A stretch of 58,265 nt of DNA from Patescibacteria group bacterium (GTDB lineage: Bacteria; Patescibacteriota; Minisyncoccia; Phycocordibacterales; UBA918): contig JBBTRC010000007.1 of the NCBI GenBank assembly GCA_038065355.1, positions 118,580 through 176,844 on the forward strand, read 5' to 3'. This document shows, in pieces, positions 1,441 to 32,364 of the stretch; the stretch's first letter is position 1, and every line of letters starts with the position of its first letter. Made by a program: the position numbers and the translations under genes. Under the pieces are notes generated by a model, which saw only the letters and a list, made by a program, of their open reading frames with translations, was not told the origin of the DNA and searched no databases.

Positions 1441-2786
1441 TATGCCGCTATTTTATCATAGGCAAATTGGAGGCGACTCTCTGTCTCTTCCTGCCCTAAA
1501 ATAAAGGCTAAAGTGAACGGGTCCGGCGACTGCTCTCGTCCTGATAAGGCAACCCGTAACGGCCACAGCACCTCCCCTTTGCCGACCTCTTCCGCGTAAG
1601 GCCAAATAGCCCCCTTTACCGCTTCAGGACTTGAGAAGTCTGCCACAGTCAGCAGTTTTTTGAGATGCAAAAGGCGCGGCGCGGCGCTGGCGACTGTTTC
1701 GTCCTTTTTCCACTTGAGCAAAGACACTTCGTAGTCGGGTACAGCAAAGGCAAAGTGGTACTCCCCCGCTTTCGCCTGCTCCTCAAATTCCTTTTTCGTG
1801 CTTATGCGTTCACGGATAGTCGGTAAAAGTTTCTCGAGACGCTCATTTGAAAATTGCGGTAGTGCAGAAAAAAACTCTTCGGCGGCGAGGTAGGCGCGTA
1901 ACTCGTCATCGGACAACTGCGCTAGGTAATGACGGTTAAACCAAGTGAATTTTTGCTTATCAAATATCGCTCCTCCCTTTTGCACCTGAGCCAGGTCAAA
2001 GCGTTCTGCCAGTTCCTCAAGGCTAAAAAATTCTTGATCCGTTCCCGGGCTCCATCCAAGCAAGGCGAGGTAGTTCACTATGGCCTCTTTCAGAAAACCT
2101 TCTTTTTGGTACTCAATCAACGCCACCGCCCCATGGCGCTTGGACATTTTTGATCGATCGGGAGCCAAAATCAATGGTAAATGTGCATAGTGCGGCCGCG
2201 TTGCACCGATTGCCTCTTGAATTAAAATTTGACGTGGTGTGTTTGAGATATGATCTTCGCCTCGAATAACATGAGTGATACCCATCTCATGATCGTCAAC
2301 GACCACTGTGAAGTGGTACAGGGCATCTTCAATGGACCGGGCGATCACAAAGTCTCCGAGTTCGGTGGTGTCAAAGGTAATTTCACCGCGAATTTCGTCG
2401 AGAAAAGTGATGGCTTTGTTTGGGTTTTTCAAGCGTATCACCTCAATCATTTCTTCCGGATTTTGCTTGCTTGGTTCCTTTGAGGCGTAGGCCGTACCGG
2501 CGGCAATGAGTTTTTCTAGGTAGGTTTTGTAGATGGCTGTGCGCTCTGACTGGCGGTAGATTGTTTCATTCTGCCAACGCAAACCAAGCCACGACAAACC
2601 GGCAATAATTTCTTCCTCATACTCTCTTTTGCTCCGTGCTTGGTCGGTATCTTCACTGCGAAAGATCATGTGCCCGCCGTGCTTTTCTGCAAATAGGTAG
2701 TTAAAAAGTGCGGTGCGAACGGTACCGATGTGCAAGCGTCCGGTGGGACTAGGTGGAATACGAGTGACGACTGGTTTATGATCCAT
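1440..2786 (-). CDS. gltX: glutamyl-tRNA synthetase
   Basis: 448-aa ORF. Class I motifs PSPTGRLHIGTVRTALFNY and KMSKRHG. Its stop overlaps the start of the downstream gene. Confidence 0.9.
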   Translation of the reverse strand: MDHKPVVTRIPPSPTGRLHIGTVRTALFNYLFAEKHGGHMIFRSEDTDQARSKREYEEEIIAGLSWLGLRWQNETIYRQSERTAIYKTYLEKLIAAGTAYASKEPSKQNPEEMIEVIRLKNPNKAITFLDEIRGEITFDTTELGDFVIARSIEDALYHFTVVVDDHEMGITHVIRGEDHISNTPRQILIQEAIGATRPHYAHLPLILAPDRSKMSKRHGAVALIEYQKEGFLKEAIVNYLALLGWSPGTDQEFFSLEELAERFDLAQVQKGGAIFDKQKFTWFNRHYLAQLSDDELRAYLAAEEFFSALPQFSNERLEKLLPTIRERISTKKEFEEQAKAGEYHFAFAVPDYEVSLLKWKKDETVASAAPRLLHLKKLLTVADFSSPEAVKGAIWPYAEEVGKGEVLWPLRVALSGREQSPDPFTLAFILGQEETESRLQFAYDKIAA

Positions 2787-9629: not shown

Positions 9630-11060
9630 TTAGTTTGTATGTGTGCGAATAAGTTCTACCAGCAGTCGCACCGGCTCCCCGGTGGCGCCTTTAGCTAGTT
9701 TATCACTTGGAATACTGTCCATTCGCGGCGCAATATCGAGATGCACCCAAGGGATTTTTTTAGAGACAAAAAATGAAAGAAACGTTCCGCCCTCAATACT
9801 GCCGCCGAAGCGGCCGGTGGGAGCGGCGACATTATTGATGTCGGCTCGCGTGCCTTTGAGGTACTGTTTGTACTCGTCCCACAGCGGCAGTGGCCAGACA
9901 AGATCGCCGGTTTTTTCACCGAGCTCAACCAAAGTCCGTTGCAATTTTTCGTTCTTGGTCATGAGTGCGCTGGCGTGCTGGCCGAGCGCGACAAGGGCGG
10001 CGCCGGTTAAGGTGGCGATATCTACAATAAGCGCTGGCTCGTACTCCTGCTGCGCGTAGGTGAGCGCATCGGCCAGCACCATCCTGCCCTCGGCATCGGT
10101 GTGTAAAATTTCCACCGTTTTACCTGAGAGCGACGTCACGATATCCCCCGCCCGCATGCTGGTCGCTGATACGGCGTTTTCCGCCGCTGGTATGAGGCCG
10201 ACGACATTTTTCTTTATTCCGAGAGCAGCGATAGCTTTGATTGTTGCGATCACTGATGCGCCACCAGACATATCCATATGCATGTCGTGCATGGCGCCTG
10301 CTGGCTTGATGTTGAGGCCGCCAGTATCGTAAGTGATTCCTTTACCAACCAATACGATAGGTTTTTCGGCTTTTTTACTCTTGCTACCCTCCCCCGCTCC
10401 CCAGTATTCAATGATGATAAAGCGGGGTTTATCATCGGCGCCCTTCCCGACCGCGTGCAGTAGGCCCATTTTCTTGGTCTTGATTTGTTTTTCATTAAAG
10501 ACAGTGATCGTTGCGCCGGTGCCTTTTAGAATACGAGCGGTCGCCGCAGCGAGTTTGCTTGGAGTCATATCATCACCCGGTGTGTTGGCAATGGTACGAG
10601 CCTCATTCGTCGCTTCGCCAATCGCGAGTCCAACATCAAACGCAACTTTTTGTGTTTTTGTTGCAACGCCACAGACCAGGATTTCTTTGAGGTGTTTCTT
10701 CGTTTTCTTAGTTTTATACTCGGTGAATTCGTACTGTGCCAACGCCAAATTTTCTGCCAACGTTTGCATAAGCCAAGCCTCGCCCATAGTTTTAATTTTG
10801 GGCGCGCGGAGGGTACCAAACGGAAGTGCTAGGTATTCCAGTCGGTGCGATTTTGCGGTTTGAACAATCGTTCGCACGAGCGTGCGAAATGAGCGAGGAG
10901 TGATGTCTTTGTACTTCCCAACCCCCATTCTATATTCCAACTGGCCATCTTTTGTCTCAACCAGTCTGTGCCAATCAGGCCTGTCTTCAGTCAGAATAAA
11001 CCGACAGTATTTTTTAGGAGTATTCTCCAACGTTTTTTGTGTAGTGCTAATTTTGGTCAT
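9630..11060 (-). CDS. pepA: leucyl aminopeptidase (M17)
   Basis: 476-aa ORF with motifs VGKGITYDTGGLNIKP and HTDAEGRMVLADAL. Confidence 0.85.
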   Translation of the reverse strand: MTKISTTQKTLENTPKKYCRFILTEDRPDWHRLVETKDGQLEYRMGVGKYKDITPRSFRTLVRTIVQTAKSHRLEYLALPFGTLRAPKIKTMGEAWLMQTLAENLALAQYEFTEYKTKKTKKHLKEILVCGVATKTQKVAFDVGLAIGEATNEARTIANTPGDDMTPSKLAAATARILKGTGATITVFNEKQIKTKKMGLLHAVGKGADDKPRFIIIEYWGAGEGSKSKKAEKPIVLVGKGITYDTGGLNIKPAGAMHDMHMDMSGGASVIATIKAIAALGIKKNVVGLIPAAENAVSATSMRAGDIVTSLSGKTVEILHTDAEGRMVLADALTYAQQEYEPALIVDIATLTGAALVALGQHASALMTKNEKLQRTLVELGEKTGDLVWPLPLWDEYKQYLKGTRADINNVAAPTGRFGGSIEGGTFLSFFVSKKIPWVHLDIAPRMDSIPSDKLAKGATGEPVRLLVELIRTHTN

Positions 11061-12450
11061 TGGTTTGCTTTTTTATAGAGAGACCAAGCTCAAGTAGTTG
11101 TTCAACAGTAAGGGGTTTGGGAGCATTCATGACAGCAGTCTGACCTTTGCGCGTCATTGGAAAGGCTTGTACTTCACGAAGTGATTCTTCACCAGTCAGG
11201 TTCATCACATTTCTCTCAACACCGAGCGCAATGCCGCCGTGAGGTGGAGTTCCAAAAGTGAAAGCTTCAAGGATATGTCCAACCTTCTCACGAGTTTCTT
11301 CCTCGGTGTTTCCCATTACTTTATATACCGCTTCAAGAATTTCTGGTTTGTGGGCGCGGATGCTTCCTCCACCTGCTTCATAGCCGTTGCATACCAGGTC
11401 GTATTGACTGGTTAAGATATTTTCAATATTTTTTCCGGCAAGCAAATCTTCAATGTGTTCTGTTTTAGGCATGGAGAAGGGGTTGTGAGTGAATGTCCAA
11501 GTTCCTTTGTCGGTTTTTTCAAAGAATGGAAAATCAACGACCCACGCATACGCCAATACTCCACTTTTCTTATCTTCATCAGTACGCATATCAAATTTGT
11601 CGGCACCGTACTTGGCCATTGATTCGGCATAAGTAACTCGCGGAAATGGTTTTTGTTTGATTGTAAATCCAAGGCTCTCAACGGTGTGCGTTATCATGTC
11701 TTCAATCATCTGTATGACGTCATCACGTTCGACGAATGACATTTCAACATCGATTTGTGTATGCTCGTAGCCGCGGTCGGCCCGTAAGTCTTCGTCTCGA
11801 ATCGCTCGGGCAATTTGTACATACCGTTCAAAACCAGCGTTCATGAGAAGTTGTTTGTACTGTTGCGGAGATTGCGGCAAGGCGTAGAATTTGCCTGGAT
11901 GATGTCGGCTCGGCACAACAAAGTCTCGAGATCCTTCTGGTGTCGATTCGGTCAGGAGCGGTGTTTCGATTTCCACAAAATCTCGTTCCATCAAAAAGTT
12001 TCTACAGCGACGTACAAATTCGCTTCGTAGACGGATGTTACGTTGCATGCGGTCGGTTCGTAGATCCAGATAACGATACTTTAGGCGAAGTTCCTCGTCC
12101 TTGTCCTTAGAGTCTTCGCTTAATGCAAATGGTGGTGTTTCGGCTTTATTCAAAATATCAATGGCAGTGATCTCGAGTTCAACGTCACCGTTCACTACAC
12201 CAGTCTTGCGCATTTTTTCGGGACGTTCGTTCACCACTCCCGTCACCGAAACCACGAATTCATTTTTTAGCGTTTTCGCAATTTCTAGCACGTCAGGTTT
12301 GCCGAAGACCACGCCTTGTACTTTTCCAGAGCGGTCTCTAAAATCAAAAAAGGCCATTTTCCCTTGGTCACGGGCGACATCAACCCAGCCAGCAATGGTG
12401 ACGGTTTGTCCAACATGATTTGATAAATCTTTAATGAGTGTTCGTTCCAT
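11047..12450 (-). CDS. aspS: aspartyl-tRNA synthetase, bacterial-type motifs but no GAD insertion domain
   Basis: Motifs FYALPQSPQQYKQLLM, QIARAIRDEDLRADR, GGGSIRAH and PPHGGIALGVER. ATG at 12450 (MERTLIKD) is preferred over the TTG at 12474. Confidence 0.85.
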   Translation of the reverse strand: MERTLIKDLSNHVGQTVTIAGWVDVARDQGKMAFFDFRDRSGKVQGVVFGKPDVLEIAKTLKNEFVVSVTGVVNERPEKMRKTGVVNGDVELEITAIDILNKAETPPFALSEDSKDKDEELRLKYRYLDLRTDRMQRNIRLRSEFVRRCRNFLMERDFVEIETPLLTESTPEGSRDFVVPSRHHPGKFYALPQSPQQYKQLLMNAGFERYVQIARAIRDEDLRADRGYEHTQIDVEMSFVERDDVIQMIEDMITHTVESLGFTIKQKPFPRVTYAESMAKYGADKFDMRTDEDKKSGVLAYAWVVDFPFFEKTDKGTWTFTHNPFSMPKTEHIEDLLAGKNIENILTSQYDLVCNGYEAGGGSIRAHKPEILEAVYKVMGNTEEETREKVGHILEAFTFGTPPHGGIALGVERNVMNLTGEESLREVQAFPMTRKGQTAVMNAPKPLTVEQLLELGLSIKKQTNDQN

Positions 12451-12470: not shown

Positions 12471-12526
12471 GCAAAAATCGCCCCTACAAACACATAGATT
12501 AACTAGTATGTTTGTAGGGGCGATTT
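12471..12526 (-). terminator. Rho-independent terminator (18-bp stem)
   Basis: aaatcgcccctacaaaca (12475-12492) pairs with tgtttgtaggggcgattt (12509-12526). On the minus strand it is followed by TTTTTGC. It ends only ~20 nt upstream of the aspS ATG. Confidence 0.75.
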
Positions 12527-12615
12527 CAATCATGTTGATTGACCGCGGTGCCACCCTACTTCGGTCCAGGATTTGTCTCCCGAGACCCTTTTAATGAATA
12601 AGTTTTGTACGTAGT

Positions 12616-12676
12616 CGTCTAGCAATTTTGGACGGGATAAAGTCCAAAATTGAGACGTAAATTCGCAATAGTCGCT
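12616..12676 (-). repeat. structured hairpin repeat, copy A
   Basis: Minus-strand RNA: AGCGACUAUUGCGAAUUUA, then CGUCU, an 11-bp stem, an 8-nt loop, a CU bulge, then AGACG. Same architecture as the copies at 20020 and 20157. Confidence 0.6.
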
Positions 12677-12735
12677 ACGCTCGTTTACTCATTCATATTT
12701 TTCGACCACGTTATATCGGACGTCTCCGGGAGATT

Positions 12736-13137
12736 CTACTCGCTTTCTAAGCTTTCCTTCCCCGCCTCAGCAGTGTCAGCTGCGTCTTTGGCAGAGTTTG
12801 ATAATACCTCGGAATTGTCTATTTGTGAACCGTTTACTTTAGAAAGATCAATTTCAATGTTAACCGCCCCCTGCGGCCACGCGAGTACGGTTACCGCATC
12901 TATATTCAAATCTGGAACTTCGGCGTGTAAGTCAGCAATAAATTGTTCATGTTCAGCTTTTCCAAGACCGATTTGATTGTTAGTTGCTGTTTCACCTAGT
13001 ATCTGGAGTCTAATTTTCTCAGAGTTTTTTTCAACGACGTTTAGGATATACCCCTTACGCTCGGCCAGCGCCTCAATATCGGTGAGGATCACATTCTCTG
13101 TCTGTTCCGGTGAAATTTCTGGATTGTACATATGCAA
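12736..13137 (-). CDS. hypothetical acidic protein (133 aa)
   Basis: Clean ORF directly downstream of trpS on the same strand. No recognised motifs. Confidence 0.55.
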   Translation of the reverse strand: MHMYNPEISPEQTENVILTDIEALAERKGYILNVVEKNSEKIRLQILGETATNNQIGLGKAEHEQFIADLHAEVPDLNIDAVTVLAWPQGAVNIEIDLSKVNGSQIDNSEVLSNSAKDAADTAEAGKESLESE

Positions 13138-18931: not shown

Positions 18932-19993
18932 CTAAATCCCCTCTTTGCGCAGCTCCTCGACGAGTTGCTCGGCCTTCTTTGAAAGCTTTTTCGGAGTTTC
19001 GATGGAAATTTTCACCATGAAGTCACCGCGGCCGCGTTCGCTCGGCACGCCCTTTTCTTTGATCCGAATAAGTTCCCCGTGTGCGATACCGGCTGGGATT
19101 TTGATTTCGACGATGCCGTCAAGTGTCTCTATTTTATATGTATTGCCTAGGAGTGCGTCGGTAAGTTTGATTGGAAGGGTGGAAGAAAGTGTAGTGCCTT
19201 CTCGTCGAATTGTCTTGTGTGGTTCGACATGTACTTTGATGTAGAGGTCACCGGGTTGGCCGTGTGGCATTGCTTCGCCGCGACCGGTCAAACGGATGAC
19301 CTCCCCGCTTTGTATGCCGGCCGGTACCTTAATGGTAATTTCTTCCTGTGTCTTGGTCACGCCAACACCGGCACAGTAAGAGCATTTTTCCTTGGGAACT
19401 TTTCCAATGCCATGACAGACACTACACTCGCGTACCGTCGTAAAACTACCCATAATGCTCTGTCTTGTTTCTCGTACTTTGCCGTTACCGCCACAGGTCG
19501 TGCAGTTTGTCATTTCAGTACCGGCCTTGGCCCCTGTGCCGCTACAGTGCACGCAGGTGTTGTTTTTAGTAATGAGGACTTTGCGCGTGACGCCAAAAAT
19601 AGATTCCTTGAAGTTGAGATTGATATCAATTGAAACATCTCGTCCACGCTGGACACGAGTACCGGTGCCAAAGCCAAAGTTTTCGAAAATGTCATTGAGG
19701 TCAAACTCAAAACCTTGCGCACCAAAACCGCCGGTCTGTTGGAAGTCCTGCCAGTTAAAATTGCCGCCTGGGCCGCCGGCACCGCTGAATGCATGGCCGT
19801 AGGCGTCATATTCGGCTTTTCTTTTGTCGTCGCCCAAGACCGCGTACGCCTCAGTTACTTCTTTGTATCTTTCTTCGTCGCCAGTCTTTTTGTCGGGGTG
19901 ATATTTTGCCGCGAGTTTCCTAAAGGCTTTTTTGACCTCTTCTTTAGTGGCGCCGCGTTGAAGACCCAATATTTGATAGTAATCTTTATTCAT
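18932..19993 (-). CDS. dnaJ: chaperone DnaJ
   Basis: J domain (DYYQILGL … YHPDK), G-rich linker and four CxxCxGxG zinc-finger repeats. Confidence 0.92.
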
Positions 19994-20019
19994 AGTGGTA
20001 TCTTAACGGCGTCCAGGAA

Positions 20020-20078
20020 TTTGCGCTAGGAAAGGCGCAAATTCGGACGTAAATTCACAATAATCGCTCCCGCTCATT
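20020..20078 (-). repeat. structured hairpin repeat, copy B
   Basis: Minus-strand RNA: AGCGAUUAUUGUGAAUUUA, then CGUCC, the 10-bp stem GAAUUUGCGC/GCGCAAAUUC, a CU bulge, then GGACG. Confidence 0.6.
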
Positions 20079-20156
20079 TGTTCACTTAAGTCCTTGTTCA
20101 TAATATATTCTGCATTGCCAATCATACACAATGCTGGTGGTCTCGCAACCTTTGAT

Positions 20157-20217
20157 CGTCCAGCGATTCTGGGCGTGATAAAGCCCAAAACCGGGACGTA
20201 AATTCACAATAATCGCT
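20157..20217 (-). repeat. structured hairpin repeat, copy C
   Basis: Same architecture. The 11-bp stem CGGUUUUGGGC/GCCCAGAAUCG has two G-U wobbles that pair only on the minus-strand transcript. Confidence 0.6.
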
Positions 20218-20273
20218 TCGCTCTTTCGTTCATTTGATAATTGCATAAAGACAGTGGCGGCGCAACAAATGAA

Positions 20274-20334
20274 GGTGTTGGGGCGATGGGTGCGCTGCCC
20301 CAACACCGCCCTTCACAAACAGCGCACCCATCGC
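20274..20334 (-). other. interleaved perfect stems just downstream of the dnaK stop (alternative hairpins or pseudoknot)
   Basis: The 10-bp pair ggtgttgggg/ccccaacacc and the 15-bp pair gcgatgggtgcgctg/cagcgcacccatcgc are interdigitated. Confidence 0.5.
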
Positions 20335-20347
20335 GCGTCCCTACACA

Positions 20348-22216
20348 CTACGCGTCGTGCACTTTTGGTTCGCCCTCTGATTTGTCGTTTTGTGTACCGG
20401 GCTCTCCTTCGGCCGCCGCTTTCTGCATGATTTCTCCGATCTTTTGCAGTTCGGTTGAAAGCGCATGCGTGGCGCTTTCGATTGCGCTTTTCTCATCTTT
20501 GTCTTTAGCTTCTTTCAGCTCTTTAATTTTTGTCTCGATTCCTGATTTGGTATCGGCCGGAATATCCTTCTCGTGGTCTTTTAAGGACTTTTCAGCTGTG
20601 TAGATCATTTGCTCAGCCACGTTACGTGTATCAATCAGCTCCTTCTTTTTTGTATCTTCTGACGCGTGCTCCTCGGCGTCTTTCTTCATGCGTTCAATGT
20701 CTGCGTCTGAAAGACCGGAGTTCGCTTCAATGCGAATTGATTGTTCTTTGCCAGTGGTTTTATCTTTCGCGGTGACGTTGAGTACGCCGTTGCTGTCAAC
20801 GTCGAATGTGACCTCGATTTGCGGTACACCACGCGGTGCTGGCGGAATACCACCAAGCACAAAGCGCCCGAGTGACTTATTATCATTTGCCATTGGCCTC
20901 TCACCTTGCACAATATGGATTTCAGTTGATGTCTGATTGTCGGCAGCAGTCGAAAACACCTGCTGTTTCCTGGTAGGAATATGTGTATTTTTTTCAATCA
21001 ATTTTGTGTTCACGCTACCCATGGTTTCGATACCAAGTGAAAGCGGAATCACATCAACGAGGGTAATATCTTGTACGTCACCTTGGAAAATACCGGCTTG
21101 AATCGCCGCGCCGAGCGCTACCACTTCGTCCGGGTTGATGGTTCGGTTTGGCTCTTTGCCAAACAGCGACTTTACCGCGTTTTGAATAGCGGGCATGCGG
21201 GTCTGTCCACCGACCAGAATGATTTCGTCAATTTCTTCTTTTTTAAGGCCGGACGCTTCGAGTGCGCGCTTGGTAATTTCGATTGATTTATCGACAAATT
21301 CGTGGGCGATTTCTTCCAGCTTGGCGCGTGTAAGTTTGACATCCATGTGGAGCGGACCGTCCGCCCCTTGAGAAATAAATGGGATGTTGATGTCAGTTTC
21401 GTTGGTGGAAGAAAGTTCGTGTTTGGCTTTTTCAGCCGCTTCATCGAGACGCTGTAGCGCCAACTTATCTTTGGAAAGATCGACACCATTATTCTTTTTG
21501 AATGCCTCAATCAAGAAGCGTACGATGCCCTGGTCGATATCGCGGCCGCCCATGTGCGCGTCACCATCGGTCGATTGCACCTCTACTACGTCATCACCGA
21601 CTTCAAGTACTGTGACGTCAAAGGTGCCACCGCCGAAGTCGTAGACGATAATCTTTTCGTCTTTTTTCTTGTTAAAACCGTACGCCAGCGCCGCCGCGGT
21701 CGGTTCATTAATGATTCGTCTTACTTCAAGGCCGGCGATTTTACCAGCGTCTTGGGTGGCTTTGCGCTGGGAGTCGTTGAAATAGGCCGGCACCGTGATG
21801 ACCGCCTCGGTGATTTTTTCGCCCAATTTTGCTTCAGCGTCAGTTTTGAGCTTTGTCAGGATCATGGCCGACACTTCCTCCGGCCGGTATTCTTTGCCGT
21901 CCATAAGAACGACTGCGCCGCCATCACTTCCCTTTTTCACCTCATACGGCACGATGGCTTTGTCTTTCTGCACAGCCTCTTCTTCGTAGGTATGGCCCAT
22001 GAAACGCTTGATTCCGTAGATGGTGTTGGTCGGGTTTGTGACCGCTTGGCGTTTGGCTATTTGGCCCACGAGCCGCTCTTTTGTTTTTGAAATCGCTACT
22101 ATCGATGGAGTCGTTCGGTTTCCTTCGGAGTTTTCAATGATTCTCGGTTCACCAGCTTCGATGATTGCCACTGCTGAATTAGTAGTACCAAGATCTATAC
22201 CCAATATCTTACTCAT
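20348..22216 (-). CDS. dnaK: chaperone DnaK (Hsp70)
   Basis: 622-aa ORF with motifs GIDLGTTNS and [11 protein letters not shown]. Full-length Hsp70 architecture. Confidence 0.95.
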
Positions 22217-22839: not shown

Positions 22840-22848
22840 ACGGGCAGC

Positions 22849-22877
22849 ATTATAAATCTAAAAAACCTGTGTGTCAA
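22849..22877 (-). promoter_or_regulatory. consensus sigma70 promoter TTGACA-17-TATAAT for grpE-dnaK-dnaJ
   Basis: On the minus strand the sequence reads TTGACA cacaggttttttagatt TATAAT. The -10 box ends 9 nt before the grpE ATG at 22839. Confidence 0.7.
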
Positions 22878-22900
22878 AGCACGCACATAAAATATTCTAT

Positions 22901-22989
22901 CCCTCATCACATATTTTGAGCGGCCGCGGGAATACAGTGCCTGTAATGGTGACCGAGCATCGAAGCGTGTGAAAATATGTGATAGAGGG
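22901..22989. repeat. long inverted repeat (17/18-nt arms, 54-nt spacer)
   Basis: ccctcatcacatatttt (22901-22917) pairs with aaaatatgtgatagaggg (22972-22989) with one bulged base. Lies directly upstream of the grpE -35 box. Confidence 0.6.
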
Positions 22990-23377
22990 ATACGCCAACA
23001 CATGAATGATTGACATAGGTTTATTTTTGATTTGTAGGAAATTTTTTGTCGAGAAAAACTTTAATTACAAGCACTTTGCCAGACTTTAATTTTTGTGTTG
23101 TGACTACTTTTTCACTTGCACGATTGCTATACTGTTTTTACCGCTTCAGCAATGAGGTGGGATGTCGCCGGGAAACTATCGCAAGATACAACCCGACACA
23201 GCTTGAACCACGAGAGTGATACATTGCAAAATATATCACTCTTAGTCCAAGGAGAATGATGGGGCTTGTGGCAAAAACAAAGAAGCTCTCGATGCTTCTA
23301 ATCCCGGAGGTGAGTTCCTAAGATTCGTCTTAAAGCTCAAACAGGACTAATTGTATAATTGGTTTCACCCATCATCT

Positions 23378-23403
23378 AAAAAACCGCCCACGGGCGGTTT
23401 TTT
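23378..23403. terminator. bidirectional Rho-independent terminator (ends the rplM-rpsI transcript)
   Basis: aaaaaa-ccgccc-ac-gggcgg-tttttt, located 24 nt after the rpsI stop. Confidence 0.8.
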
Positions 23404-23426
23404 AGTGTTTGAGACAAAGGTTTTCT

Positions 23427-23837
23427 TTATCGCTTTGACCAGGCTGGTCGCTTGCGAGCTTTTTTGAGGCCAAATTTCTTTCGTTCAACCGCGCGCGAGT
23501 CTCGCTTGAGGAAACCTGCGCTCTTAAGTGCGCCGCGACGAGAAGCTTTCTCTTGCACGAGTGCCCGAGCAATGCCAAGTCGGATGGCTTCTGCTTGAGC
23601 TGAAATTCCACCACCGAGTACATGGGCAGTAATATAGTAATGCTCTATGCCAGCATCTTTAGTCTCAAGAACAGACTGAAGATTTTTTTGGTGAGAGGCG
23701 TGTTTAAAGTAGTCAGACAGAGATTTTTCGTTTACTACAATCTCCGTGGCTGAAGCAGGCGTAAGACGCACGCGCGCGGTCGCAGATTTGCGTCGACCAA
23801 TCCCTTCTACGTAGGTTGATTTTTTTGCTGCAGACAT
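23427..23837 (-). CDS. rpsI: 30S ribosomal protein S9
   Basis: 136-aa ORF with the basic C-terminus …KKARKRPAWSKR, downstream of rplM. Confidence 0.92.
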   Translation of the reverse strand: MSAAKKSTYVEGIGRRKSATARVRLTPASATEIVVNEKSLSDYFKHASHQKNLQSVLETKDAGIEHYYITAHVLGGGISAQAEAIRLGIARALVQEKASRRGALKSAGFLKRDSRAVERKKFGLKKARKRPAWSKR

Positions 23838-32010: not shown

Positions 32011-32082
32011 TATCAGTGAATAAGCACTATAAACAAATTAAGTAGAGACGTCTACTTCTTTAAAATAACTACAGAAATTTTG

Positions 32083-32364
32083 CTATTTAGGGAACAACGC
32101 ACTGGCCGCACTGGCCGCACATTCTTCTCCAGAGCACGTCAGGAGGGTGGTGTCGAAACCGTAGAAGAGCATTTCTAAGATATAGCCTGTGACAATAAAC
32201 AGCAAACCAGCAAAAGTGAGCCAACGCTCTATTCGGAAACTTCTCAGTACTTCGTTATCGACTTTTTTTTCGTGAGCCAACTCATCGTGCGCTATGAGCA
32301 CTCCAGACACCAAAAAGACCTTCCCTATAAGACCAATCGTCAATCCCCAAAAAAGTTCATTCAT
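32083..32364 (-). CDS. small hypothetical membrane protein (93 aa)
   Basis: Three hydrophobic helices. No recognised motifs. Confidence 0.45.
   Translation of the reverse strand: MNELFWGLTIGLIGKVFLVSGVLIAHDELAHEKKVDNEVLRSFRIERWLTFAGLLFIVTGYILEMLFYGFDTTLLTCSGEECAASAASALFPK

Follow-up and report, generated by a model that had tools for sequence, protein, structure and literature searches.

An apparently undescribed two-hairpin intergenic repeat found mainly in one Kaiserbacteria-like lineage of CPR bacteria

CGTC-tagged REPs carry an unpaired terminal CGTC tag on a stem of 8-9 bp with a loop of 4-5 nt, and have a short CCA-like tail (Di Nocera et al. 2013, PMC3733652). Here we describe an intergenic element of 78-80 nt, built of two hairpins lying side by side (P1 and P2), in which P2 likewise begins with CGTC, but in which CGUCY is paired with RGACG, the stem runs to 15-16 bp with a CU bulge against 8-9 bp in those repeats, the loop has 7-10 nt against 4-5, and no CCA tail is present. 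Correia/NEMIS, RUP, BOX, ERIC and MITE-like sequences offer a second point of reference. As in these families, the element is a dispersed non-coding sequence in the ~80-150-nt range, present or absent between related strains and predicted to be co-transcribed with neighbouring genes, and its hairpins, like theirs, are predicted to be possible ribonuclease targets; unlike them, it shows no terminal inverted repeats, target-site duplication or parent insertion sequence and consists of two adjacent hairpins in place of a single long foldback. The element is a real structured repeat, apparently undescribed, since its stems keep pairing through compensating mutations, it occupies different sites in related genomes, and it falls in no catalogued RNA family.

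We analysed a window of 58,265 nt from a Patescibacteria group bacterium (assembly GCA_038065355.1, contig JBBTRC010000007.1, positions 118,580-176,844), an uncultured organism from Hainich groundwater in which housekeeping genes flank the element copies. The string AGCGAYTATTGYGAATTTACGTC occurs three times on the minus strand of the window, at 12654-12676, 20046-20068 and 20195-20217, with an expectation of 0 in 100 shuffles. Two covariance models run with filters off returned exactly three copies, all on the minus strand and scoring 82-93 bits, with the next-best match in the window at 14 bits or less and no further copies in the 10 kb on either side, that is, three in ~78 kb. Copies C and B stand in the gene order grpE-dnaK-C-B-dnaJ within a dnaK-dnaJ spacer of 354 nt, the length given in the first-pass annotation of this DNA; the start-to-start distance between them is 149 nt and not the 137 nt reported there, and 16 nt separate the 3′ end of copy B from the dnaJ start codon. 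Copy A lies within the aspS T-box leader, in the order trpS, a 133-aa ORF, copy A and a class II tRNA synthetase that is a bacterial-type AspRS (NCBIfam). All three copies carry the features first described for them: a CGUCY/RGACG outer stem, a CU bulge, a 10-11-bp inner stem and an 8-nt loop. The features of the window are as follows.

20348..22216, minus strand: dnaK (622 aa), upstream of copies C and B; Pfam HSP70, 816.8 bits
20157..20236, minus strand: copy C, full element, 80 nt; cmsearch 84.2 and 82.6 bits; folds
20200-20235, 20199 and 20157-20198, minus strand: P1, linker A and P2 of copy C; P2 has 5 bp, the CU bulge and 11 bp, with loop UUUAUCAC and two G·U pairs
20121..20148, minus strand: sigma-70-like promoter match TTGCGA-16-TATGAT between C and B; consensus scan, 9/12
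20089..20101, minus strand: ATGAACAAGGACT, a degenerate duplicate of the dnaJ start ATGAATAAAGATT, directly upstream of copy B
20010..20088, minus strand: copy B, full element, 79 nt; cmsearch 93.2 and 92.5 bits
20051-20087, 20050 and 20010-20049, minus strand: P1 (GGGA cap), linker A and P2 of copy B; P2 has 5 + 10 bp and loop CUUUCCUA
18932..19993, minus strand: dnaJ (353 aa), downstream of copy B; Pfam DnaJ, DnaJ_C, DnaJ_CXXCXGXG
12616..12695, minus strand: copy A, full element, 80 nt; cmsearch 88.1 and 87.4 bits
12659-12694, 12658 and 12616-12657, minus strand: P1, linker A and P2 of copy A; P1 has a GUA cap, and pair 9-31 is U·G instead of C-G
12474..12560, minus strand: 3′ half of the aspS T-box leader, downstream of copy A (context)
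12543-12560, minus strand: aspS T-box motif AGUAGGGUGGCACCGCGG; Rfam T-box 29.6 bits, below gathering score
12474-12527, minus strand: aspS T-box terminator hairpin, read from sequence

The promoter candidate at 20121..20148 is context, outside the element proper. It is the sole promoter-like site found, no promoter consensus falls within the element copies, and copy B would lie in the dnaJ 5′ UTR if this putative promoter is used; the canonical consensus used by the organism, TTGACA-17-TATAAT, stands before grpE. At the related locus L006 the two copies of the dnaJ-start duplicate are identical across 13 nt.

Alignment of the loci defines an element larger than the one first outlined. Conservation reaches ~20 nt upstream of a conserved 19-nt block, as U(A/G)AAUGARCAAAYGAGCG-N1-3-AGCGAY, so that the P2 hairpin stands as first drawn but the element starts 19-20 nt further upstream than that block. 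The sequence of the block also holds, but its reading as a single-stranded box does not: it is the 3′ strand of P1, and its partner is the upstream AAAUGARCAAA strand. P1 is a near-invariant hairpin of ~37 nt, 5′-AAAU·GA·RCAA·A·Y·GA·GC-[GNRA or GNA]-GC·GA·Y·UA·UUGY·GA·AUUU-3′, which from its base comprises AAAU/AUUU, a symmetric tandem G·A, RCAA/UUGY, the invariant pair A12-U27 and Y13 opposite Y26, with A28 as a single-nucleotide bulge, and which ends at its apex in a second tandem G·A followed by a GC/GC stem and a cap. The caps are GAA, GUA, GUAA, GCAA, GGGA and similar; those of 4 nt are GNRA in 4/6 cases (GUAA twice, GCAA and GGGA), the remainder being GCCA and GGUA. A kink-turn, which places tandem G·A pairs beside a 3-nt bulge, was rejected for P1 on the grounds that both G·A motifs are symmetric, in-helix and without a bulge. 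A single A links P1 to P2, which has a conserved 5-bp base (CGUCY/RGACG), the CU bulge on its 3′ side, a 10-11-bp stem that stays paired although its upper half is free to vary, and a pyrimidine-rich loop of 7-10 nt across copies (8 nt in those of the window), mostly CUUUCCUA or UUUAUCNC. The P2 hairpins of the window copies fold at -24.1, -21.6 and -20.6 kcal/mol (minimum free energy; z-scores between -4.5 and -5.2), and single-sequence folds of many copies agree with the two-hairpin structure.

The compensatory substitutions first reported from the three window copies hold on two larger alignments. We aligned 16 copies with MAFFT independently of the fold, and RNAalifold returned both P1 and P2 from this unfitted alignment, in which 91.1% of cells pair compared to 80.0±1.0 in column shuffles and the covariation score is 0.318 compared to 0.127, a value matched by 0/500 shuffles; slid-partner controls on the same alignment reached at most 0.102. 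An alignment of 19 distinct copies fitted by the covariance model has 95.1% of cells paired, both sides changed in 19/27 pairs and double changes in 79 cells, values again matched by 0/500 shuffles, but it is structure-biased by construction, and the independent support is therefore that of the unfitted alignment and RNAalifold. Within the 19 copies, the P1 pair R8-Y32 is G-C in 11 and A-U in 8 with zero exceptions. Y13/Y26 is C·C in 9 copies and U·U in 5, and is swapped for G-C, A-U or U-A in three (L004, window copy C and L025:898-972), an exchange for Watson-Crick pairs that indicates direct non-canonical contact between the two positions. Divergent copies extend the pattern: the upper P1 G·A motif is replaced by Watson-Crick pairs in L025:898-972 and L017:636-710, and L006:3854-3970 has compensated P1 pairs AAGU/ACUU and GUAA/UUAC together with a 40-nt stem inserted in the cap. 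Across copies there are 20 G·U against 6 A·C when the gene-sense strand is read, which together with the GNRA-type caps points to the gene-sense strand as the one that folds, in agreement with the first interpretation. The two minus-strand G·U pairs claimed for copy C are likewise present; on the plus strand they become mismatches and the fold weakens to -17.2 kcal/mol (z = -2.2). These data show a two-hairpin fold under selection on the gene-sense strand.

Searches for a named identity returned none, as the first-pass annotation had supposed. Rfam 15 gave zero matches in the window at gathering score, only chance microRNA and small-RNA matches of 33 bits or less for copies B/C and A at E up to 10, nothing overlapping the element copies at six other loci, and no match to the element from its ribozyme and group II intron domain models. 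The CIRCE/HrcA operator, whose consensus we take to be TTAGCACTC-N9-GAGTGCTAA, has 0 matches in the window with up to 3 mismatches allowed. T-box leader identity was rejected on the grounds that the T-box motif and specifier lie outside copy A (the aspS specifier hairpin, GCAG-CUGACA-CUGC, is at 12770-12783) and that copies B and C have neither; P1 was rejected as a T-box Stem I in view of an Rfam alignment that adds approximately nothing to the score and of the real specifier hairpin upstream. We also looked for the hallmarks of a mobile element that had been named as a possible refutation. Terminal inverted repeats are absent, the 5′ end U(A/G)AAUGA being not complementary to the 3′ end CUGGACG, and no target-site duplication is common to the flanks of 20 copies, the sole candidate being a 13-nt repeat around the element plus 15 nt at the dnaJ site (L006 and window copy B). 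No transposase, integrase or reverse transcriptase is evidently associated with the element.

Exact-pattern scans of species-representative genomes and metagenome contigs yielded 26 loci. The 21-mer scan placed the element in five CPR metagenome-assembled genomes and ten metagenome contigs, and the exact 21-mer sits within a full element in only 5 of ~185,000 representative genomes. We built a covariance model (R1) from the alignment and ran it over the collected DNA, a check suggested at the outset. In total we found 21 copies beyond the three of the window, all in uncultured CPR genomes or metagenome contigs; family members score 45-101 bits and are cleanly set apart from background. Other long contigs carry ~1 exact match per 50-100 kb. 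The labels of the carrier genomes vary (Saccharibacteria, Elulimicrobium, Paceibacterota), and the wide spread over CPR phyla that these would imply was rejected: placeable carriers are relatives of the window organism. The DnaJ of the window has 73-84% identity to numerous proteins with Kaiserbacteria, Parcubacteria or Paceibacterota labels. L002 (DZBU01), L006, L015, L016 and L038 have gene order and 50-89% protein identity in common with the window or its relatives, and L007 (CAZFSB01, labelled Saccharibacteria) has gene order in common with L008 (DZBU01). Given this common gene order and protein identity of the placeable carriers, the family appears confined mainly to one Kaiserbacteria-like lineage (Paceibacteria, CPR). 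A Methanomicrobiales match (L001/L022) and those at L009, L012, L014, L020, L021, L023 and L026 lack the P1 5′ strand, score 15 bits or less and were set aside as chance or partial. Phage origin was rejected after blastn against 50,697 phage records gave no match, and three viral-contig pattern matches are not family members.

Comparison of five orthologous sites shows an element that turns over through gain, loss, tandem duplication and decay. The dnaK-dnaJ site holds two copies in the window, one in L006 and none in L036, L038, L040 and L041, four relatives with the common grpE-dnaK-dnaJ … trpS-aspS order whose dnaK-dnaJ spacers measure only 60-96 nt. The first-pass annotation had implied a dnaK-dnaJ feature, and this part of it fails: the element behaves as a dispersed one that is gained and lost, since it is absent from these spacers and present before other genes elsewhere. 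The L006 copy is orthologous to copy B, with an identical P2 stem; the window and L006 agree at ~93% over copy B and its flanks, their DnaJ proteins being 76% identical. Between grpE and dnaK only L006 has the element, as an older, divergent copy, and the window spacer there is 23 nt. At aspS the window has its copy within the T-box leader, L015 and L038 have theirs beyond the T-box terminator, 41 and 18 nt ahead of the start codon, and L036 and L040 have none; L016 has it at the alaS site and L002 at the site between mnmA and an nrdR-like (ATP-cone) gene, both empty in the window. Copies C and B of the window and those of L025 form tandem or chimeric arrays, all in direct orientation; L013, L017 and L025 have an additional hairpin module between P1 and P2, and decay is seen in L008, which has lost 7 nt and whose P2 is broken. 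Empty-site alignments do not define insertion boundaries, the intergenic DNA being too diverged. Overall, the earlier interpretation is partly supported and needs revision on the anatomy of the element and on its implied link to dnaK and dnaJ.

We tentatively favor, at a little short of an even chance, a new family of intergenic elements that are small, non-autonomous, duplicating and strand-specific and take up their fold as RNA in the untranslated regions of mRNAs. We infer the mechanism of such an element as follows: it would live as RNA, more probably than as folded ssDNA, inside the untranslated regions of host mRNAs; it would be a non-autonomous duplicating unit rather than a dedicated dnaK/dnaJ regulator; and most plausibly a protein or ribonuclease would recognise it as a stable module. 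As REP- and Correia-type repeats do in other bacteria, it may set adjacent cistrons apart in stability or expression, serving as a putative barrier or processing point; a role for P2, a 15-16-bp bulge-interrupted stem, as an RNase III or other processing site is speculation. Mobilisation hallmarks were not found, copy number is low, unlike classic REP and MITE families, orientation relative to neighbouring genes is a tendency only, and P1 is near-invariant between genomes whose intergenic DNA has ceased to align, all of which count against this preferred reading. A factor-bound functional site fits the conservation of P1 and of copy B at least as well as a selfish repeat does. Two alternatives, a regulatory leader and an autonomous RNA, stay in play because P1 hardly varies and copy B is conserved together with its flanks.

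A dedicated cis-regulatory leader RNA (a protein operator or riboswitch-like), serving a small regulon of translation and protein-folding genes with P1 as a conserved binding pocket and P2 as an accessory or expression-platform helix, is in our judgement rather unlikely. The element is found before aspS, alaS, rnpA, yqeY, dnaK, a HAD hydrolase gene, rplC and secD in various genomes, and many copies end 15-46 nt ahead of a co-oriented start codon (dnaJ twice, dnaK, aspS three times, alaS, yqeY, rnpA and HAD hydrolase), as a leader would; the near-invariant nucleotides of the P1 internal loops, the conserved stretch of copy B plus flanks in the window and L006, and tandem copies as seen in some riboswitches fit this reading as well. 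Co-orientation with neighbouring genes is nevertheless a tendency only: 10 copies are co-oriented with both neighbours, but 4 copies at 3 loci (L025 and L019 among them) are antisense to both and 2 copies (L007, L008) lie at 3′ ends between convergent genes. At various loci the element also follows genes for a tyrosine recombinase, a methyltransferase, folD and dnaB. A leader is further disfavored by presence and absence among close relatives at all orthologous sites examined and by a varying relation to the aspS T-box, inside it in the window and after its terminator in L015 and L038. P2 was not seen to sequester a ribosome-binding site and forms no terminator (no terminator call on any copy, and mixed sequence after P2 with no U tract); pairing of the P2 loop to the 3′ flank, as a pseudoknot or anti-SD contact, is no better than in shuffles (-2.8 against -2.6 kcal/mol).

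We consider it unlikely that the element acts at the DNA level, as a ssDNA hairpin with flank for a recombinase or HUH/Y1 transposase, analogous to REP-RAYT pairs, IS200/IS605 ends or integron attC sites, with its RNA-like features incidental. GNA triloops and tandem G·A pairs are stable in DNA as well, and this reading keeps weight for that reason. Gain and loss, tandem arrays and insertion beside terminators and stop codons also speak for it: 5 copies directly abut the T-run of an intrinsic terminator, starting after it, and 4 overlap the stop codon of the upstream gene through the UGA or UAA of UAAAUGA. The copy at L004 begins 4 nt past a tyrosine-recombinase gene, and a bulged stem with a variable apex recalls attC architecture. 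On the other side, copy number is low, gene tables covering ~100 kb of the 358-kb source contig around the window copies contain no transposase domains, such as that of the RAYT (Y1 transposase) gene that accompanies REP/REPIN, the 4-nt caps are mostly GNRA (4/6), an RNA signature, and head-to-head dimers, an attC R-box (GTTRRRY) and a cassette or integrase context are lacking. The CGTC at the start of P2 matches that of CGTC-tagged REPs, but it is paired here, the sizes misfit the CGTC families and there is no CCA tail (PMC3733652).

Two further proposals give the RNA itself a more specific function. The first, which we hold to be doubtful, is a new CPR-specific functional RNA module, either a small self-cleaving ribozyme or a high-affinity dock for an RNA-binding protein or ribonuclease, that rewires how the transcripts of essential genes are processed or how stable they are; such a module would move from genome to genome and lodge in mRNA leaders, including that of a T-box riboswitch. 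The second, an autonomous functional RNA of a new class in the form of a small self-cleaving ribozyme or a free small RNA, is in our view very unlikely. Hammerhead, twister and pistol ribozymes occur scattered in genomes, and the sporadic multi-copy distribution of the element, sometimes tandem and with no gene association, would suit such a class, as would its conserved nucleotides (both tandem G·A motifs, A12, the Y·Y opposition, U27-A28, the linker A, the CU bulge and the loop) and the P1 apex (Y-GA-stem-GA-Y), which we take to resemble hammerhead stem II with its flanking G·A pairs. The hammerhead core (CUGA, A14) is absent, however, the Rfam ribozyme models do not match, no promoter and terminator delimit a free small RNA, and tertiary pairing was not detected computationally.

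A small peptide, whether antisense RKFAIVA(S/T)LVCSF or a sense mini-ORF of 3-5 codons (MNK/MSKRA), and with it a small-protein gene or type I toxin, is effectively refuted and scarcely credible, because P1 cap indels of 1, 2, 7 and ~40 nt shift the frame between copies, and, although both Y positions in the 19-nt block make conservative or synonymous changes in some frames and several antisense copies have a TTG or ATG start in P2 after the purine-rich loop, 6/16 copies scored, and copy C when read by hand, have no antisense start, the sense mini-ORF varies from 3 to 36 codons and its AUG is base-paired within P1.

CPR bacteria (Patescibacteria) represent a large part of bacterial diversity, and their non-coding RNA and repeat content is almost unknown; the organisms concerned here have very few known regulatory RNAs. 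The element offers a testable handle on post-transcriptional biology in CPR bacteria or on a new mode of small-element propagation, and its copies provide a ready seed alignment for an Rfam-type family. It would represent a new RNA class if it is catalytic or recruits a specific protein, and a modest addition to the catalogue of bacterial repeats if it is merely selfish.

Comparison with known systems finds partial likenesses. We take integron attC sites to be defined by R″/R′ boxes of consensus RYYYAAC…GTTRRRY in a cassette or integrase context; the element, unlike these, has CGUCY/RGACG at its stem base, no GTTRRRY, and housekeeping genes as neighbours. The P1 apex, Y-GA-[GC-GNRA-GC]-GA-Y, resembles hammerhead domain 2, but CUGA, A14 and a three-way junction are missing and Rfam gives no match. 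T-box leaders (RF00230) are linked to the element by position, an aspS T-box leader enclosing copy A and immediately preceding the copies of L015 and L038, and by resemblance, in that the P1 G·A motif and GAY triplet recall the base and specifier of Stem I and the native T-box linker of L038 has AAAUGAGUAAAC, identical to the P1 5′ strand of copy A. Unlike a T-box, the element has no T-box sequence or antiterminator and most copies are far from tRNA synthetase genes; the Rfam T-box score arises from the flanking 3′ half and not from the element. Rickettsia palindromic elements are longer, are inserted in frame in coding sequences and show no similarity in sequence or structure, but they too are structured repeats in the reduced genomes of host-dependent bacteria and are tolerated beside or inside functional sequence, as the element is in a T-box leader and over stop codons. 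Measured against REP and BIME sequences, the element is low-copy, has direct-oriented clusters without head-to-head dimers, and includes a second hairpin, the G·A-rich and highly conserved P1, that has no REP counterpart. What it shares with them is the form of short palindromic intergenic repeats that lie mostly downstream of or between co-directional genes, keep their variable stems paired and plausibly act as RNA hairpins.

The aspS gene of the window is preceded by a T-box leader that harbors copy A of the two-hairpin element, with counterparts in a complete Kaiserbacteria genome, CP060229, whose aspS site lacks the element (L036), and in two loci from other genomes or metagenome contigs where the element follows the T-box terminator (L038 and L015). 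The leader scores 29.6 bits against the Rfam T-box model, far under the gathering threshold of 93, and Stem I appears to be ultrashort with the Asp specifier GAC within a hairpin loop.

12474-12783, minus strand: aspS T-box leader (counterparts L036:18200-18425, L038:17960-18120 and L015:1-128)
12770-12783, minus strand: specifier hairpin GCAG-CUGACA-CUGC
12543-12560, minus strand: T-box motif, in which UGGC fits the G73 discriminator
12474-12527, minus strand: strong terminator

The native linker of this T-box carries UUAAAUGAGUAAAC in L038 (17995-18010) and UUUAAUGAUUAAAC in L036 (18255-18270), sequences near-identical to the 5′ strand of hairpin P1 in copy A (GAAUGAGUAAAC). This near-identity hints either that copy A entered the aspS leader by recombination at linker microhomology or that the family and the leader share a historical kinship.

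We compared the aspS coding regions downstream of these leaders.

Window 11047-12450, minus strand: aspS
L015:250-1602: aspS
L038:18218-19558: aspS

The AspRS of the window is a bacterial-type enzyme (NF001750, 585 bits), that of L015 an archaeal-type non-discriminating one (NF003483, 471 bits). Their N-terminal ~100 residues, forming the anticodon-binding OB fold, are much more alike than the remainder, which is so much less similar that full-length identity is only 38%. Similarity of the OB fold despite the difference in enzyme type suggests domain-level recombination that included the shared T-box leader.

In the dnaK-dnaJ spacer, the dnaJ start region is duplicated directly upstream of copy B (20089-20101 versus 19981-19993, minus strand), as it is at ~1850-1862 versus ~1731-1743 (minus strand) in L006, a relative with a single element copy orthologous to copy B. 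L006 has ATGAACAAAGATT unchanged over 13 nt on either side of the element plus 15 nt, and the window duplicate has diverged at would-be synonymous positions of MNKD. Possible readings of the duplicate are a target duplication, the relic of a start codon and a small ORF upstream of dnaJ. The P1 5′ strand (AAAUGAACAAA) is itself likewise similar to the duplicated sequence.

Two inverted repeats interleave immediately 3′ of the dnaK stop codon (20282-20335, minus strand): GCGATGGGTGCGCTG…CAGCGCACCCATCGC surrounds GGTGTTGGGG and the partner of the latter, CCCCAACACC, comes after the outer repeat. The resulting hairpins, mutually exclusive or pseudoknotted, may limit how much dnaK read-through reaches dnaJ. 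Judging from two promoter matches, this CPR organism evidently uses canonical hexamers.

20121-20148, minus strand: sigma-70-like TTGCGA-16-TATGAT, between copies C and B
~22850-22880, minus strand: perfect TTGACA-17-TATAAT, upstream of grpE

The non-coding rpsI-grpE spacer (22840-23430, minus strand) is, at ~590 nt, unusually long for so compact a genome, opens with an intrinsic terminator (AAAAAACCGCCCGTGGGCGGTTTTTT) and matches no Rfam family. Upstream of alaS, ~2.5 units of a short tandem repeat, GTGCGGCCA, occupy ~32060-32090 (minus strand).

In some family members elsewhere, P1 is separated from the 5′ strand of P2 by an inserted hairpin module, conserved and optional (UGCURGAAAAUA…UAUAUUUUCUGUAYRCAGAGC), which creates a three-helix variant.

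L013:4478-4526: optional hairpin module
L017:~2330-2375, minus strand: optional hairpin module
L025:1085-1135: optional hairpin module

At L025, one element seems nested in, or recombined within, another.

Upstream of aspS in the window, a 133-aa ORF without a family match (12736-13137) overlaps the leader start. The place of this small ORF and copy A is occupied in the trpS-aspS interval of CP060229 by a 335-aa HTH_38-domain protein (L036:17088-18095). The trpS-aspS intergenic region seems to be insertion-prone, and HTH_38 domains are typical of IS30-type transposases.
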